Assembly: GCF_000027125.1 (NCBI RefSeq)
Contig: NC_017626.1
Length of the DNA stretch: 64,000 bases
From: Escherichia coli 042
GTDB lineage: Bacteria; Pseudomonadota; Gammaproteobacteria; Enterobacterales; Enterobacteriaceae
Strand: one strand, 5' to 3'
The stretch's first letter is position 1. Each line of letters begins with the position of its first letter. Shown one piece after another: positions 16,743-64,000 of the stretch. The notes under the pieces were generated by a model that saw nothing but the letters and a program-made list of their open reading frames with translations, had not been told where the DNA came from and searched no databases. The translations under genes were made by a program, and so were the position numbers.

Positions 16743-16780
16743 TCTTTTGATGCCGGGCTATGCCCGGCAACTGAGCCTGA

Positions 16781-16926
16781 TGGCAAACGCAAAACTGCCT
16801 GATGCGCTACGCTTATCAGGCCTACATGAACTCTGCAATATATTGAATTTGCATGCTTTTGTAGGCCGGATAAGGCGTTTGCGCCGCATCCGGCATTTCA
16901 CAACAAGCACTTGTCAGCAATTTGAG
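16781..16926. repeat. BIME (pair of inverted REP elements) between rhlE and ybiA
   Basis: gcctgatgcgctacgcttatcaggcctac and gtaggccggataaggcgtttgcgccgcatccggcat; near-copy of the element at 42021-42164. Confidence 0.65.
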
Positions 16927-16977
16927 AACGCGGCAAAAAGATTTCTCTGTTTTATCGCCCATAAGTCACCCGAGATG

Positions 16978-21974: not shown

Positions 21975-22085
21975 AAACAAGGGTAACATAGGATCAATGA
22001 GGGTTAGAGCATATGCGTCTGTCGGCAAACAGACAGGGAAATACTTGTGCTGGACGTAGCGTAAACGCCTGATCCGGCTTACGAA

Positions 22086-29901: not shown

Positions 29902-30050
29902 GACTCCTCCAGTGAGAAAACAGAGCAAAAAGATAAGTATAGATGCTGGGGGAGGGGCGATTTTAAATGAGAGGAATCTGGTGTGCCTCCCTTTCGGGGG
30001 AAAGGGAGGAAGGGATATTAAGCAGGTTGCTGACAACGTGCGGGCTTTTT

Positions 30051-30151
30051 TGCCGGATGCGGCGTGAACGCCTTATCCGTCCTACAAGTTCATGCAATTT
30101 TAATAAGTTGCCAGATATCCTGTAGGCCTGATAAGCGTAGCGCATCAGGCA
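30051..30151. repeat. BIME / REP pair between ybiO and glnQ
   Basis: tgccggatgcggcgtgaacgccttatccgtcctac and gtaggcctgataagcgtagcgcatcaggca in inverted orientation. Confidence 0.6.
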
Positions 30152-30161
30152 ATGTGTCTTA

Positions 30162-41976: not shown

Positions 41977-42020
41977 GTTATTATCAGTAGCCCTGATATG
42001 GTCAGGGCTACTGAAACTGA

Positions 42021-42164
42021 TGACAAATGCAAAATTGCCTGATGCGCTACGCTTATCAGGCCTGGCAGTACCTGTAATATATTGAATCTGCTGGACTTTG
42101 TAGGCCAGATAAGGCGTTAACACCGCATCAGGCATTAACAAAGCGCACTTGTCAGCAATCTGAG
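42021..42164. repeat. BIME (inverted REP pair) between ybiT and ybiU
   Basis: gcctgatgcgctacgcttatcaggcctg and gtaggccagataaggcgttaacaccgcatcaggcat; near-copy of 16781-16926. Confidence 0.65.
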
Positions 42165-42215
42165 TAACGTCGAATCGATTTTCTTAATCCCACATCAATT
42201 CACTTCCATTAACTC

Positions 42216-57404: not shown

Positions 57405-59753
57405 ATGCTGAGTTTATACGAAAAGATAAAGATAAGGCTGATAATTTTATTTTTATTGGCAGCACTGTCATTTATTGGTCTTTTTTTCATCATTAACTAT
57501 CAACTGGTATCGGAGCGCGCGGTAAAACGTGCCGATAGCCGCTTTGAACTTATTCAGAAAAACGTTGGCTATTTCTTTAAAGATATTGAACGTTCGGCCC
57601 TGACATTAAAGGACTCACTGTATTTATTAAAAAATACAGAGGAGATTCAACGCGCCGTGATTCTTAAAATGGAAATGATGCCATTTTTAGACTCGGTGGG
57701 ACTGGTACTTGATGATAATAAATATTATCTCTTTTCGCGGAGGGCGAATGATAAAATCGTAGTTTATCATCAGGAACAAGTAAATGGACCGCTTGTCGAC
57801 GAGTCAGGGCGGGTTATTTTTGCCGATTTTAACCCATCGAAACGACCGTGGTCGGTGGCTTCAGATGACTCTAACAACAGCTGGAATCCGGCATACAATT
57901 GCTTTGATCGTCCGGGTAAAAAATGTATCTCTTTTACGCTACACATCAACGGCAAAGATCACGATTTGTTAGCGGTGGATAAAATTCATGTCGATTTAAA
58001 CTGGCGATATCTGAACGAGTATCTTGATCAAATCAGCGCTAATGATGAAGTTCTATTTTTGAAACAAGGCCATGAGATCATTGCCAAGAATCAACTCGCG
58101 CGTGAAAAACTGATTATTTATAATAGCGAAGGTAATTATAATATTATTGATTCTGTCGATACTGAATATATCGAAAAAACATCAGCGGTGCCAAACAACG
58201 CATTATTCGAAATCTATTTTTATTATCCTGGCGGTAATTTATTGAACGCATCAGATAAACTTTTTTATCTGCCGTTTGCTTTCATTATTATCGTATTGCT
58301 GGTGGTTTATTTAATGACCACTCGTGTGTTCCGTCGGCAATTTTCTGAAATGACAGAGCTGGTTAATACGCTGGCGTTTTTGCCTGACTCAACGGATCAA
58401 ATCGAGGCTCTGAAAATTCGCGAAGGCGATGCGAAAGAGATTATCAGCATCAAAAAATCGATCGCGGAAATGAAAGATGCCGAAATTGAACGGTCAAATA
58501 AATTGCTCTCACTGATCTCTTACGATCAGGAAAGCGGTTTTATTAAAAATATGGCGATTATTGAGTCCAACAATAATCAGTATCTGGCTGTGGGGATCAT
58601 CAAACTGTGTGGTCTGGAAGCCGTGGAAGCGGTGTTTGGTGTTGATGAACGCAATAAAACCGTCAGGAAATTGTGTCAGCGAATTGCCGAGAAATATGCG
58701 CAATGCTGCGATATCGTGACATTTAATGCCGATCTCTATTTACTTCTGTGCCGGGAAAATGTACAGACATTTACCCGTAAAATAGCGATGGTAAACGATT
58801 TTGACAGCAGCTTTGGCTACCGCAATCTGCGCATCCATAAGTCTGCCATTTGTGAACCTTTGCAGGGGGAAAACGCCTGGAGTTACGCAGAAAAACTGAA
58901 ACTGGCGATTTCCAGCATCCGTGACCATATGTTCTCAGAGTTTATTTTCTGTGATGACGCGAAACTCAACGAAATAGAAGAGAATATCTGGATTGCGCGT
59001 AATATTCGCCATGCAATGGAAATTGGCGAACTATTCCTGGTCTATCAGCCGATCGTTGATATTAACACCCGCACCATTCTGGGCGCGGAGGCGTTGTGCC
59101 GTTGGGTGTCTGCGGAGCGGGGGATCATTTCACCGCTAAAGTTCATTACCATTGCTGAAGATATCGGGTTTATCAATGAGCTGGGTTATCAGATTATTAA
59201 AATGGCAATGGGTGAATTCAGGCATTTTAGCGAGCGTGCGGTTCTGAAGGACGGTTTCTTACTGCATATTAATGTTTCGCCCTGGCAGTTAAACGAACCA
59301 CACTTTCATGAGCGTTTTACCACCATCATGAAAGAAAACGGTCTGAAGGCGAACAGCCTCTGTGTTGAGATCACTGAAACCGTGATCGAGCGAATTAATG
59401 AACATTTTTATCTCAATATTGAACAACTGCGTAAACAAGGGGTACGGATATCGATTGATGACTTTGGCACCGGTTTGTCAAACCTGAAACGTTTTTATGA
59501 AATTAATCCAGATAGCATAAAAGTGGACTCGCAATTTACCGGCGATATTTTCGGTACTGCGGGAAAAATTGTGCGCATTATTTTCGATCTGGCACGCTAT
59601 AACCGGATTCCGGTGATTGCGGAAGGCGTAGAGAGCGAAGATGTTGCGCGCGAATTAATCAAATTAGGATGTGTTCAGGCTCAGGGGTATCTGTACCAGA
59701 AACCCATGCCATTCTCCGCCTGGGATAAAAGTGGAAAATTAGTAAAAGAGTAG
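57405..59753 (+). CDS. pdeI: c-di-GMP phosphodiesterase PdeI (YliE; membrane-anchored EAL domain)
   Basis: 782 aa from ATG 57405; N-terminal TM, C-terminal EAL motif (GAEALCRW). Confidence 0.92.
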
Positions 59754-59760
59754 TTTACGT

Positions 59761-61089
59761 ATGTCCAGAATCAATAAGTTCGTACTTACAGTCAGTCTGC
59801 TGATTTTTATCATGATTTCAGCAGTTGCCTGCGGGATCTACACTCAAATGGTAAAGGAACGGGTGTATGGCCTGAAACAGTCCGTTATTGATACTGCTTT
59901 TGCGGTGGCAAATATTGCTGAATATCGGCGTAGCGTGGCAATTGATCTCATCAACACGCTAAACCCCACGGAGGAACAGCTGTTGGTTGGCTTGCGCACA
60001 GCTTACGCCGACTCGGTTTCACCCTCTTATTTGTACGATGTCGGTCCTTATCTGATTTCCAGTGACGAATGTATTCAGGTAAAGGAGTTCGAGAAAAATT
60101 ATTGTGCAGATATTATGCAGGTTGTGAAGTATCGACATGTCAAAAATACAGGGTTTATCTCTTTTGACGGTAAAACTTTCGTCTATTACCTCTATCCGGT
60201 AACTCACAATCGCAGTCTGATATTTTTGCTTGGTCTGGAGCGTTTTTCTTTACTGTCAAAATCGCTGGCGATGGATAGCGAGAACCTGATGTTCTCTCTG
60301 TTTAAGAACGGTAAACCGGTGACCGGTGATGAATATAATGCTAAAAACGCCATCTTCACCGTTTCGGAAGCGATGGAGCACTTCTCCTATTTGCCGACCG
60401 GATTGTACGTATTTGCGTATAAAAAAGATGTTTATTTGCGGGTTTGTACGTTGATTATTTTCTTTGCCGCATTGGTGGCAGTGATATCGGGTGCCAGTTG
60501 CCTCTATCTGGTACGCAGAGTGATTAATCGTGGTATTGTGGAGAAAGAAGCCATTATTAATAACCATTTTGAACGCGTACTAGATGGCGGGCTTTTCTTT
60601 TCGGCTGCCGATGTCAAAAAACTCTACAGTATGTATAACTCGGCGTTCCTGGACGACCTGACTAAAGCGATGGGCAGAAAATCCTTTGACGAAGATTTAA
60701 AAGCGCTACCGGAAAAAGGTGGTTATTTGTGCCTGTTTGACGTCGATAAATTCAAAAACATCAACGACACCTTCGGTCATTTGCTGGGCGATGAAGTGTT
60801 GATGAAAGTGGTGAAAATCCTTAAATCACAGATCCCGGTAGATAAAGGTAAAGTCTACCGCTTCGGCGGTGACGAATTTGCGGTGATTTATACGGGTGGA
60901 ACGCTGGAAGAGTTGCTATCGATTCTAAAAGAAATCGTTCATTTCCAGGTGGGAAGCATTAATTTAAGCACCAGTATCGGTGTAGCGCATTCAAATGAAT
61001 GTACTACCGTCGAACGCTTGAAAATGCTGGCGGATGAGCGGCTGTATAAGAGTAAGAAAAACGGCAGGGCGCAGATTAGCTGGCAGTAG
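59761..61089 (+). CDS. dgcI: Diguanylate cyclase DgcI (YliF; GGDEF domain)
   Basis: 442 aa; RFGGDEF motif near the C-terminus. Confidence 0.93.
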
Positions 61090-61103
61090 AATTAGAATAG
61101 TGT

Positions 61104-61129
61104 TAGTACCCCTTAATCAAGGGGTACTA
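61104..61129. repeat. Perfect 11-bp-stem hairpin between dgcI and the toxin-antitoxin module
   Basis: tagtacccctt-aatc-aaggggtacta; no flanking T-run on either strand. Confidence 0.5.
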
Positions 61130-61158
61130 ATGAATGTGGTAAATCATTTGCAAACATT

Positions 61159-61488
61159 TTACTTTGCAAAAACTTCCGGTCCTTTTATTGCCAATGTATT
61201 CAAAATACGTAGTGCCGGGCCGCTCGGTTTTATTTCATTTCGTTCCCATTTCGAGACACTTTCTTTTGACATTCCCATTGTATGTGCCAGCACGGATTGT
61301 GACATGCCGTATCGGGTGCGGATGGCTTTGATCTCTTCACCCGTCATTGATTTGACTTTGGCTATACGGGCGCTGACTTCACGAGCTTTGACCATGACGG
61401 CAATGGCATCAACTTCACTATCAGACATCAGGCCCAGTGCATTCAGTTCCTTTGCATCTTCCAGCATCATTTGTAATTTATCGCTCAT
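61159..61488 (-). CDS. XRE-family helix-turn-helix antitoxin candidate (HigA-like)
   Basis: 109 aa; HTH segment MSQSVLAHTMGMSKESVSKWERNEIKP; GAGGTG RBS; overlaps the upstream toxin-like ORF by 11 nt. Confidence 0.7.
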   Translation of the reverse strand: MSDKLQMMLEDAKELNALGLMSDSEVDAIAVMVKAREVSARIAKVKSMTGEEIKAIRTRYGMSQSVLAHTMGMSKESVSKWERNEIKPSGPALRILNTLAIKGPEVFAK

Positions 61489-61864
61489 TTTTCACCTCAA
61501 TCAAAAAGCCAGTTTCGATCAAATCCTCTATTTGCTTATTGCTAAAGGCCAGAAATGCATTTGCCATTTTTTTGTAGGCCACCAGTTCATCATCTTCGAT
61601 TTCTTTGGTTCCTTTACTGCTTAGACCACTCTTGGACCAACCATCATAAAAAAACACATGATTTGCTGATTTAAAAAAGATAATTGTTCTGGCTCCACCA
61701 CTCTTTCCTTGTTGGAGGGGTAAACGTTTTTTGATGACACCGCTACCTAAATCAGCCTCCCATATGCCTTGCATCACTTCTTCAGCGGCAGCCATGAGAA
61801 CTTTATCGTGAATACCAAGTTTTTTCGTGCTTTGGCTGAATCGTCTTGCCTTATACACACCCAT
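61478..61864 (-). CDS. Type II toxin candidate, RelE/ParE superfamily (HigB/Gp49-like)
   Basis: 128 aa; AGGATGG RBS; toxin-first arrangement with a downstream HTH partner as in higBA; family assignment is from memory. Confidence 0.65.
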   Translation of the reverse strand: MGVYKARRFSQSTKKLGIHDKVLMAAAEEVMQGIWEADLGSGVIKKRLPLQQGKSGGARTIIFFKSANHVFFYDGWSKSGLSSKGTKEIEDDELVAYKKMANAFLAFSNKQIEDLIETGFLIEVKNER

Positions 61865-61879
61865 ACATCCATCCTTGTG

Positions 61880-61905
61880 GTAATGTTTACTATAGTAACC
61901 ATTAC
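61880..61905. promoter_or_regulatory. Candidate operator of the toxin-antitoxin operon
   Basis: gtaatgtttactatagtaaccattac, 24 of 26 positions palindromic, 16-40 bp upstream of the toxin start. Confidence 0.45.
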
Positions 61906-62088
61906 GCTTATTTCAAGTAATTGCGATCAAAACTTTAATTTGGTGTGAAAAAGTGAGAGTTGCCTCGAGTATGATTCATTTTTCTCGATTTATACGTCAG
62001 GGGATTTTGTGCGTAAGGGTAGGACATGGGAAGGGTAGCAGAGGCAGATCGAAGAACAATATCCTTGTTAGATCTGCCTTTAGATTAA

Positions 62089-63414
62089 TTAAACCCGGCT
62101 ACCCCACAAATCGTACTCATCGGCGTGCTCGACTTTCACACGCAGGATATCACCTGGCTTAACGTTGGTTTCACCATTGAGATAAACCGCGCCGTCGATT
62201 TCCGGTGCATCTGCCATGCTGCGACCAATCGCGCCTTCTTCGTCCACTTCGTCGATAATCACCAGAATTTCACGGCCCACTTTCTCTTGCAGGCGCTCGG
62301 CGGAAATCTGCTGCTGCAGCTGCATGAAACGGTTCCAGCGTTCTTCTTTCACTTCTTCCGGAACCTGGTCAGGCAGGGCATTGGCGTCCGCACCTTCAAC
62401 CGGGCTGTATTTAAAGCAGCCAACGCGATCCAGACGTGCTTCTTTCAGGAAGTCGAGTAGCATCTGGAAATCTTCTTCCGTCTCGCCAGGGAAGCCGACA
62501 ATAAAGGTTGAGCGTAAGGTCAGTTCCGGGCAGATTTCGCGCCACTGTTTGATGCGCGCCAGTTGGCGATCTACAGAACCCGGACGCTTCATCAGTTTGA
62601 GAATGCGCGGGCTGGCGTGCTGCAACGGAATGTCCAGATACGGCAGGATTTTGCCTTCTGCCATCAGTGGGATGACGTCGTCCACATGCGGATAAGGGTA
62701 AACGTAGTGCAGACGTGTCCAGATCCCCAGTTTCGATAACTGTTCGCACAGGCTGACCATGCTGGTTTTTACCGGCTCGCCGTTGTGGAAGCCAGTACGA
62801 TGTTTAACATCGACGCCATAGGCGGAAGTATCCTGCGAGATCACCAGAATCTCTTTAACGCCCGCATCAACCAGACGTTTAGCTTCACTTAACACTTCGC
62901 CGATCGGACGGCTCACCAGGTCGCCGCGCATAGACGGAATAATGCAGAAGGTGCAGCGGTGATTACAGCCTTCCGAAATTTTCAGATAGGCATAATGACG
63001 CGGCGTCAGTTTCACACCTTGTTCTGGCACCAGGCTCAGGAATGGGTTGTGTTTCGGTTTTGGCACGTAGTGATGAACGTGCTCCAGAACCTGCTCATAG
63101 CTATGAGGCCCGGTGATTTCCAGCACTTTCGGGTGGACTTCGCGGATCTGATCTTCTTTTGCCCCCAGACAACCGGTCACAATTACCTTGCCGTTTTCAT
63201 TCAACGCTTCACCAATGGCTTCCAGTGATTCTTGTACCGCGCTGTCAATAAAGCCGCAGGTGTTGACGATCACCATGTCCGCATCGTCATAGCTCGGTAC
63301 CACGTCATAACCTTCAGTGCGTAGTTCGGTGAGAATACGCTCTGAATCGACAAGGTTTTTCGGACAGCCAAGGGAAACAAAGCCGATTTTCGGCTGGGGA
63401 GTTACTTTGCTCAT
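62089..63414 (-). CDS. rimO: Ribosomal protein S12 methylthiotransferase RimO (radical SAM)
   Basis: 441 aa; CNHRCTFC radical-SAM cluster. Confidence 0.96.
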
Positions 63415-63626
63415 AGCTTAAAAAATATTCAGTTACAGGAAAGGTCAGGGCAGGGATTCTACAGAGTTCTGGATAAAATTTGTATCGCAATCTCATTCGC
63501 TGGCGGAGGCGAAGGAAATGTAAATTTTGTTAATTCGGCGTGAAGAATTGATCCTGGACAGCATTTTGCTCAAAAAATAGCCATACTATTTAATTGCAAC
63601 AAGGCTGGAAAGAGGAGGATCGAAGT

Positions 63627-64000
63627 ATGTTCGTTGACAGACAGCGAATCGATCTGCTGAACCGGTTGATCGACGCACGCGTTGACCTCGCTGCATACGT
63701 GCAACTGAGGAAGGCAAAAGGATACATGTCCGTCAGCGAAAGCAATCATCTACGAGATAACTTTTTTAAACTGAATCGCGAACTGCACGATAAATCGCTG
63801 CGGTTGAATCTTCATCTGGATCAGGAAGAGTGGAGTGCTCTTCATCATGCTGAAGAAGCATTAGCGACAGCCGCAGTATGTTTGATGAGTGGGCACCATG
63901 ATTGCCCGACTGTTATTACCGTCAACGCCGATAAGCTTGAAAATTGTCTGATGAGCTTAACGCTGAGTATCCAGAGCCTGCAGAAGCACGCCATGCTTGA
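63627..64000 (+). CDS. bssR: Biofilm regulator BssR, N-terminal part (CDS runs past window end)
   Basis: ATG 63627 with GAGGAGG RBS; frame open to window end (MFVDRQRIDLLNRL...); not in the ORF track because there is no stop. Confidence 0.85.
   Translation, partial: MFVDRQRIDLLNRLIDARVDLAAYVQLRKAKGYMSVSESNHLRDNFFKLNRELHDKSLRLNLHLDQEEWSALHHAEEALATAAVCLMSGHHDCPTVITVNADKLENCLMSLTLSIQSLQKHAML

Follow-up and report, generated by a model that had tools for sequence, protein, structure and literature searches.

What occupies the DNA between dgcI and rimO in Escherichia coli 042, and how did a segment that many E. coli strains lack come to lie there? The locus belongs to a 64,000-nt stretch of contig NC_017626.1 (assembly GCF_000027125.1), hereafter called the window, whose first letter is position 1 throughout. 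A first-pass annotation, made from the letters of the window, had described a toxin-antitoxin-like pair in this interval. The locus is very probably a chromosomal type II toxin-antitoxin operon of the HigBA2 family, in which a gene for a RelE-like toxin precedes a gene for a helix-turn-helix (HTH) antitoxin. Chance resemblance is excluded by the profile matches of the two proteins, to PF06296 across the whole toxin (E 2.7e-32) and to HTH_3 in the antitoxin (E 3.4e-9).

The spacer between the end of the dgcI open reading frame (ORF; 61089) and the end of rimO (62089, minus strand) measures 999 bp in the ORF listing for 59000-64000, while 46 bp lie between the same stop codons in K-12 MG1655; the earlier estimate of about 1 kb, and the statement that the two genes are nearly adjacent in K-12, were both accurate. 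Alignment by BLAST with K-12 positions 817447-878621 is colinear, breaks at 61088 and resumes at 62084, which confirms that the pair is absent from K-12 at this junction and leaves about 994 bp of the window standing in place of 41 bp of K-12. The K-12 spacer holds an inverted repeat resembling a terminator hairpin and is unrelated to the segment: when both strands were aligned to it, the best score was 12, against a mean of 10.2 and a maximum of 15 for shuffled sequence. The ORFs of the segment are the pair and their shadow ORFs only, and the described minus-strand arrangement of 128 and 109 residues with an 11-nt overlap agrees with the listing:

61090..62083, unstranded: window-specific segment replacing the K-12 spacer (BLAST against K-12)
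61478..61864, minus strand: toxin gene, HigB2-type RelE/ParE, 128 residues plus TAA stop, ATG start (ORF listing and PF06296)
61159..61488, minus strand: antitoxin gene, 109 residues plus stop, ATG start, with an N-terminal region of about 47 residues followed by an XRE HTH domain (ORF listing and HTH_3)
61478..61488, minus strand: overlap of toxin stop and antitoxin start, 11 nt, ATGAGCGATAA (read from the sequence)

An overlap of this kind suggests that translation of the toxin and of the antitoxin is coupled.

The family of the toxin is well defined. Its residues 1-124 match PF06296 from model position 1 to 120 of 120 (112 bits, Pfam scan). Pfam names this family 'RelE' (formerly DUF1044); a 2025 survey of the RelE/ParE superfamily identifies it as the family of Vibrio cholerae HigB-2 and lists it among the ribosome-dependent mRNases with toxin-antitoxin gene order (PMC11980606). 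Wherever annotation exists for the 70 homologues found, PF06296 is assigned. Assignment to the RelE/ParE superfamily in the first-pass annotation therefore stands, as the HigB2 type; its proposal of a HigB/Gp49-like toxin does not, since Gp49/PF05973 and the HigB families of Rts1 and K-12 (PF05015 and PF09907 were considered) are ruled out by a Pfam scan that returned PF06296 and two non-significant, unrelated matches at E ≤ 10. Against the PDB, a single-sequence phmmer search with the toxin gave nothing at E ≤ 1, and a profile built from 23 homologues had as its sole match the chains of V. cholerae HigB-2 (E 2.4e-5). Structure prediction leads to the same protein: the AlphaFold2 model of the toxin has a predicted local distance difference test score (pLDDT) of 87.5, and the top four PDB entries in Foldseek are HigB2 chains (probability 1.0, template modelling (TM) score 0.49-0.61), followed by YafQ, Streptococcus pneumoniae HigB and ParE.

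The active site of HigB2, as defined by experiment, consists of K49, R51, R64, Y82 and K84 (PMC5416850, PMC10098735). In the profile alignment these residues fall on K45, R47, R59, W76 and K78 of the toxin, and the toxin orthologues in other genera keep the same active-site residues. A family search over 1.84 billion cluster representatives yielded 2796 clusters at E ≤ 0.001, from which 147 representatives were aligned; K45 is conserved in 145 of these, R47 in 144, R59 in all 147 and K78 in 146.

The second protein had been described as an XRE helix-turn-helix partner, and its HTH_3 match, covering residues 53-94, bears this out. It also has a weak sequence match in the PDB to V. cholerae HigA-2 (5jaa, E 5.7e-4). 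Helices are predicted at residues 3-17 and 23-43, with those of the HTH domain after them; the confident N-terminal helices come from an AlphaFold2 model of a toxin-linker-antitoxin fusion (pLDDT 79.8, predicted TM score 0.63). Similarity to HigA-2 and to AntitoxP of Coxiella burnetii takes in residues 10-47, and by analogy with these proteins the N-terminal 47 or so residues would be the segment that neutralises the toxin.

Other family labels for the antitoxin can be set aside. An MqsA-type protein is ruled out: the score with TIGR03830, 47.1 bits, falls short of the 61.8 cutoff, only the HTH half (profile positions 51-122) aligns, and the antitoxin lacks the MqsA zinc finger, because there is no cysteine in its 109 residues. 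The NCBIfam match to 'NadS' is rejected as below its cutoff and again confined to the HTH half; no paper linking NadS with antitoxin and RelE turned up in a literature search. PRK10072 ('HTH-type transcriptional regulator'), which we take to be the YiaG model, likewise covers the HTH half only and reaches 26.7 bits (E 5.8e-6) with a cutoff of 110. PADLOC gives only generic HTH matches for the antitoxin.

Upstream of the toxin gene lie the elements expected of a regulated promoter, with Shine-Dalgarno-like motifs before each start codon:

61911..61916, minus strand: predicted -35 hexamer TTGAAA (promoter scan)
61889..61894, minus strand: predicted -10 hexamer TATAGT (promoter scan, 10 of 12 matches, 16-nt spacer)
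61880..61905, unstranded: putative operator, a 26-bp imperfect palindrome, GTAATGGTTACTATAGTAAACATTAC in minus-strand reading (inverted repeat, 93% complementary)
61887-61898, unstranded: palindrome core, 12 bp, TTACTATAGTAA (invariant in orthologous loci)
61872..61876, minus strand: Shine-Dalgarno-like AAGGA, 7 nt before the toxin ATG (read from the sequence)
61493..61498, minus strand: putative Shine-Dalgarno-like GAGGTG, 4 nt before the antitoxin ATG (read from the sequence)

The promoter is predicted to be sigma-70-like. The palindrome, which had also been noted, begins five bases past the -35 box and has its centre on the -10 box; it occurs once in the 64-kb window and had 0 matches in 100 shuffles. 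Comparison with orthologous loci was made on an upstream alignment of seven, whose toxins are 67-99% identical to that of the window. The core and the TATAGT hexamer are invariant in all 7, the TTGAAA hexamer is partly conserved (2 of 6 positions invariant), an AGGA/GAGG motif before the toxin ATG is kept, and the remaining upstream sequence has diverged. The core is present once per locus in this close clade, 24-35 nt before the toxin ATG and including one locus in an unrelated genomic context; more distant homologues with a different recognition region in the antitoxin lack it. The core travels with the cassette and co-occurs with the antitoxin clade. The operator of V. cholerae HigA2 is likewise a palindrome that extends from after the -35 box across the -10 box (PMC11006873), and the palindrome here can be regarded as a putative autoregulatory operator to which the antitoxin would bind.

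The two genes behave as a unit beyond E. coli. In every homologous locus fetched, an HTH_3 gene comes after a PF06296 gene and overlaps it by 4-11 nt. These loci are from Kluyvera chromosomes, metagenome contigs, Tn3, resolvase and integrase contexts, and plasmids of Moellerella, Pantoea and Pseudomonas; tblastn places relatives on 209 plasmid records and one phage. Within E. coli, the segments of the window and of O157 Sakai differ at 15 positions, 7 of them synonymous coding changes and 3 of them in the two codons whose amino acid changes (T86S, V95A); the two antitoxin proteins do not differ, nor does the promoter-operator. The mostly synonymous character of these changes, with the constancy of antitoxin and promoter-operator, points to purifying selection on the pair. 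Gene order, small sizes, overlap and palindrome all hold as the toxin-first type II architecture first proposed, and as far as sequence can define it the pair has every feature of a HigBA2-type (PF06296) module, its operator being a candidate.

Two further occurrences of the family were seen in passing. Escherichia phage PhiR12_3, a temperate phage of ECOR13, has near its integrase end (2951-3634) a PF06296-like ORF with 37% identity to the toxin; the gene after it bears the note 'Antitoxin to RelE-like translational repressor toxin'. Similarity to the toxin runs past the annotated coding sequence of 85 residues, so that the phage copy may be mis-annotated or frameshifted. Xenorhabdus thailandensis carries two different PF06296-HTH pairs within 5 kb (90-708 and 5001-5712 of the retrieved stretch), among Tn3-type transposase, resolvase and IS110 and other insertion sequence (IS) genes, and the short pair (110 and 94 residues) has motifs closer to those of V. 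cholerae HigBA2.

A mechanism can be proposed by analogy with V. cholerae HigBA2, Coxiella ToxP/AntitoxP and Acinetobacter baumannii HigBA2, from which RNase activity, neutralisation, autorepression and antitoxin lability are carried over to this pair. A single promoter (-35 TTGAAA, -10 TATAGT) would give a bicistronic mRNA with the toxin first, and translation of the antitoxin would be coupled to that of the toxin through the 11-nt overlap. The toxin, by homology a RelE-fold endoribonuclease, would enter the ribosomal A site and cleave mRNA under translation by means of K45, R47, R59 and K78 together with the aromatic W76. The helical N-terminal stretch of about 47 residues in the antitoxin would neutralise it, while the antitoxin would dimerise and bind DNA through its C-terminal XRE helix-turn-helix domain. 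With the toxin as probable co-repressor, the antitoxin would occupy the 26-bp palindrome over the -10 box and shut the operon off; if the presumably labile antitoxin were not replenished, free toxin would stop translation.

The solved pair V. cholerae HigB2/HigA2 (higBA-2; PDB 5JA8, 5JAA, 8A0X) shares with the window pair the PF06296 family, the toxin-first order, the RelE-like fold, the four basic active-site residues, an antitoxin with a putative N-terminal neutralising segment and a C-terminal XRE-HTH dimer, and the layout of the candidate operator, which again starts just past the -35 box and spans the -10 box. The two differ in several particulars. The toxin here has 128 residues and HigB2 has 110; its C-terminus is longer, and the model shows two helices there and a final strand; the N-terminal region of the antitoxin is longer (about 47 residues), with two helices predicted in place of the helix plus strand of HigA2; the putative operator core is TTACTATAGTAA rather than TGTACGC-N5-GCGTACA; and the V. 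cholerae pair resides in the superintegron whereas the window pair lies between core genes.

Among the systems compared, the closest with experimental validation is ToxP/AntitoxP (CBUA0028/CBUA0027) of the Coxiella burnetii plasmid QpH1, for which toxicity, rescue, inhibition of translation, toxin-antitoxin binding and promoter binding have been shown experimentally (PMC10098735). Toxin and ToxP are 36% identical over the full length (E 5e-24), antitoxin and AntitoxP 33% (E 2e-12), and gene order and overlap are the same. Unlike the window pair, ToxP/AntitoxP is plasmid-borne, serves plasmid maintenance and has Tyr at the aromatic position; annotated ToxP also has 30 extra N-terminal residues. 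HigB2/HigA2 of A. baumannii pAB120, which its authors class as HigBA2-type, combines an RNase toxin that acts as co-repressor with an antitoxin that represses the promoter (PMC5906591); it is plasmid-borne, and the comparison with it is by its published description. In the relE-yiaG modules (PMC11980606), the gene for a PF06296 toxin precedes that of an HTH protein whose N-terminus forms two helices, as is predicted here, but those toxins have extended disordered N-termini, while the toxin here matches the Pfam model from residue 1 and has no extension. The K-12 pairs RelBE, HigBA, YafQ-DinJ and MqsRA belong to the same RelE/ParE (BECR-fold) superfamily and follow the logic of ribosome-associated mRNA cleavage, and the HTH domain of the antitoxin here resembles the C-terminal domain of MqsA. 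Their Pfam families (PF05016, PF09907, PF15738, PF15723) differ from PF06296, however; in RelBE and YafQ-DinJ the antitoxin gene comes first and encodes a ribbon-helix-helix protein, and MqsA has a zinc-finger N-terminal domain that the antitoxin here lacks.

At its two ends the segment is bordered by hairpins:

61103..61130, unstranded: hairpin with a 12-bp stem between the convergent dgcI and antitoxin stops (inverted repeat, 100% complementary)
62042..62079, unstranded: hairpin just 3' of the rimO stop, within the window-specific segment (inverted repeat; function putative)

The first has a folding energy of -17.7 kcal/mol on one strand and -19.3 kcal/mol on the other (z -4.7 and -5.0); it is likely a bidirectional transcript end, a putative terminator with no clear U-tract. 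For the second the values are -16.2 and -17.3 kcal/mol, with z of -3.7 and -4.2. An intrinsic-terminator scan at the operon ends produced nothing convincing, and Rfam recognised no RNA family in or near the segment.

How common the pair is can be judged from 5426 complete E. coli genomes. The 999-bp spacer was found in 1138 of them (coverage of at least 80% in 1128), with almost all identities at 95-100% and nearly every copy chromosomal. A query spanning both flanks recovered the junction in 5425 genomes and the pair in 1129 (about 21%), including O157:H7, so the locus is strain-variable, as had been said; in the sampled genomes without the pair, the spacer is always the 46-bp one of K-12 type. 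Neither ORF is disrupted in the window or in the sampled genomes that have the full segment, and the exact toxin sequence occurs on at least 196 contigs. Public annotation already labels the toxin: in RefSeq its gene is a 'type II toxin-antitoxin system RelE/ParE family toxin' and the neighbouring one a 'helix-turn-helix domain-containing protein', and the corresponding loci of O157:H7 Sakai are ECs_5400, named 'addiction module toxin RelE', and ECs_5399.

The other half of the earlier description, that the pair forms an islet, which implies a recent insertion between dgcI and rimO, fares less well, and we consider recent acquisition unlikely. It would fit the absence of the pair from K-12 and about 79% of E. 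coli, the guanine-cytosine (GC) content of the segment (38-46%, against 51-55% for rimO) and the residence of more distant homologues on transposons and plasmids. Yet the neighbouring pdeI-dgcI genes are equally low in GC, the segment has no integrase, transposase or other recombinase, no terminal inverted repeat and no target duplication (a search for flanking direct repeats or duplications met only short, chance-level matches), and the unrelated K-12 spacer is not an empty target site. Orthologous pairs, moreover, lie directly downstream of gsiD in the same relative orientation in Kluyvera georgiana, Kluyvera sichuanensis, GCA_002421005.1 and metagenome contigs, with bssR or rimO-bssR-yliI on the other side in two of these loci. 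At the nucleotide level these pairs are 69-75% identical to that of the window, compared with 76-79% for the gsi genes and 85% for rimO, and within E. coli the copies of separate lineages diverge by as much as 1.6%, much as the flanking genes do. Because the orthologues share the gsiD-rimO neighbourhood and have diverged about as far as the flanking genes, old residence is favoured over recent insertion: most likely the pair has long resided in this neighbourhood in the Escherichia/Kluyvera group and would have been lost or replaced in most E. coli, a reading that rests on a handful of genomes, four of them independent and syntenic. A stronger version, in which the pair predates the Escherichia/Kluyvera split, has been inherited vertically and is held at its frequency of about 21% in E. 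coli by balancing selection rather than as a selfish addiction cassette, is one to which we give little credence; a defence against certain phages could drive this, as could a stabilising or regulatory effect on the adjacent low-GC pdeI-dgcI/bssR block of cyclic di-GMP and biofilm genes.

As to function, several points weigh against a working HigBA2 operon. The toxin has no NCBIfam or PADLOC model (both were scanned, 0 families); its identity to solved HigB2 is low, 13-17% over the structural alignment with TM scores of 0.5-0.6; neither flanking hairpin has a U-tract, which leaves the transcript ends uncertain; some E. coli carry truncated toxin variants, so that some lineages may hold inactive copies; W76 occupies the position of the catalytic Tyr82, whose replacement by alanine in V. 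cholerae HigB2 costs 1200-fold in activity; and the searchable literature yields no experiment on this E. coli allele, searches on rimO and dgcI with toxin-antitoxin, on the protein accessions and on the Sakai tags ECs5399/ECs5400/ECs0914 having returned nothing relevant. The substitution and the truncations, along with the frequent degeneration of chromosomal toxin-antitoxin pairs, could indicate a decayed module in which the toxin is inactive and the HTH protein is kept only as a transcription factor. We regard this as very improbable, given the intact ORFs, the retention of K45, R47, R59 and K78 here and in orthologues of other genera, and the mostly synonymous changes between distant E. 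coli lineages. An aromatic residue stands at position 76 in 142 of the 147 aligned representatives (F in 117, Y in 15, W in 10); since most members of the PF06296 family have Phe there, the Tyr hydroxyl is evidently dispensable, and by this comparison Trp76 falls within normal family variation. The biological role may be addiction, stress response or phage defence; plasmid or phage exclusion and persistence had been suggested at first. It is also quite doubtful that the pair is mainly an anti-phage abortive-infection or plasmid-exclusion module, in which infection would cause host transcription to stop or the antitoxin to be degraded, leaving free RNase to prevent the synthesis of phage proteins. 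A role of RelE/ParE-superfamily modules as toxins in defence has been discussed (PMC11980606), the PF06296 family also occurs on plasmids, Tn3-type elements and one prophage, and defence genes typically vary in presence between members of one species, as this pair does. Set against this are the failure of the toxin to match any PADLOC model, the housekeeping genes that flank the locus with no defence genes nearby, a position that is orthologous across genera and outside any defence-island context, and the lack of any experimental link found. The HigBA2-family operon, with its matching fold, catalytic residues, architecture and operator-like palindrome, is the preferred reading.

Other arrangements of this neighbourhood were met among the relatives. 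In GCA_002421005.1 a SUKH/SMI1_KNR4 immunity-like gene stands between the orthologous pair and rimO (4738-5688 of the retrieved stretch), and pdeI-dgcI is absent from the gsiD-rimO interval, by which the low-GC (about 43%) pdeI-dgcI block of E. coli may be a later arrival between gsiD and the pair. An Escherichia-like Logan contig from SRR26188678 (1-1684), with a rimO end 90% and a toxin 80% identical to those of the window, has a gene order unlike that of E. coli: the rimO 3' end, a hairpin, a HEAT-repeat ORF of 237 residues, a 48-bp remnant of the dgcI 3' end, the promoter-operator, the toxin and the antitoxin. The dgcI remnant thus lies on the rimO side of the pair. The HEAT-repeat ORF occurs in 0 of the 5426 E. 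coli genomes.

Elsewhere in the window, three differences or repeats attract comment. Between ybhM and ybhN, about 2 kb of AT-rich DNA (4054-6029) is absent from K-12, which has 26 bp there. It holds four same-strand ORFs (4109-4498, 4575-5045, 5078-5704 and 5766-6044), none with an NCBIfam match; an ORF of 199 residues matches the SUKH-4 immunity family PF14435 (E 6.9e-6), and the segment looks like a cluster of orphan polymorphic-toxin immunity genes. At 22059-22076 the window is missing about 71 bp of K-12 (837567-837637, between ybiE/zbiJ and ybiJ); an 18-nt overlap of the two BLAST blocks at this point hints that the deletion is bordered by a short direct repeat. The sole Rfam match above gathering score in the window, to the small RNA ES036 (CssrF; 16818-16860, minus strand, 41.5 bits), falls inside 16774-16930, which matches several places in K-12 at 84-86% identity and has similar repeats at 30023-30153 and 42017-42168. 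It is probably a repeat of the repetitive extragenic palindromic (REP)/bacterial interspersed mosaic element (BIME) type rather than a specific small RNA gene.

The pair is ordinary, known in kind and already annotated as toxin-antitoxin, and the analysis has little import beyond a correct annotation, namely the right family (PF06296) and a concrete candidate operator. For E. coli, it means that the dgcI-rimO spacer comes in two forms, one of 46 bp with a terminator-like inverted repeat and one that carries a HigBA2-family operon of about 1 kb. With Trp where the studied homologues have Tyr, the toxin offers a clean candidate for characterising an E. coli RelE-type toxin. A toxin-antitoxin pair can also keep one chromosomal position across genera, which adds a little to the discussion of whether such pairs in chromosomes are nothing but mobile, selfish elements.

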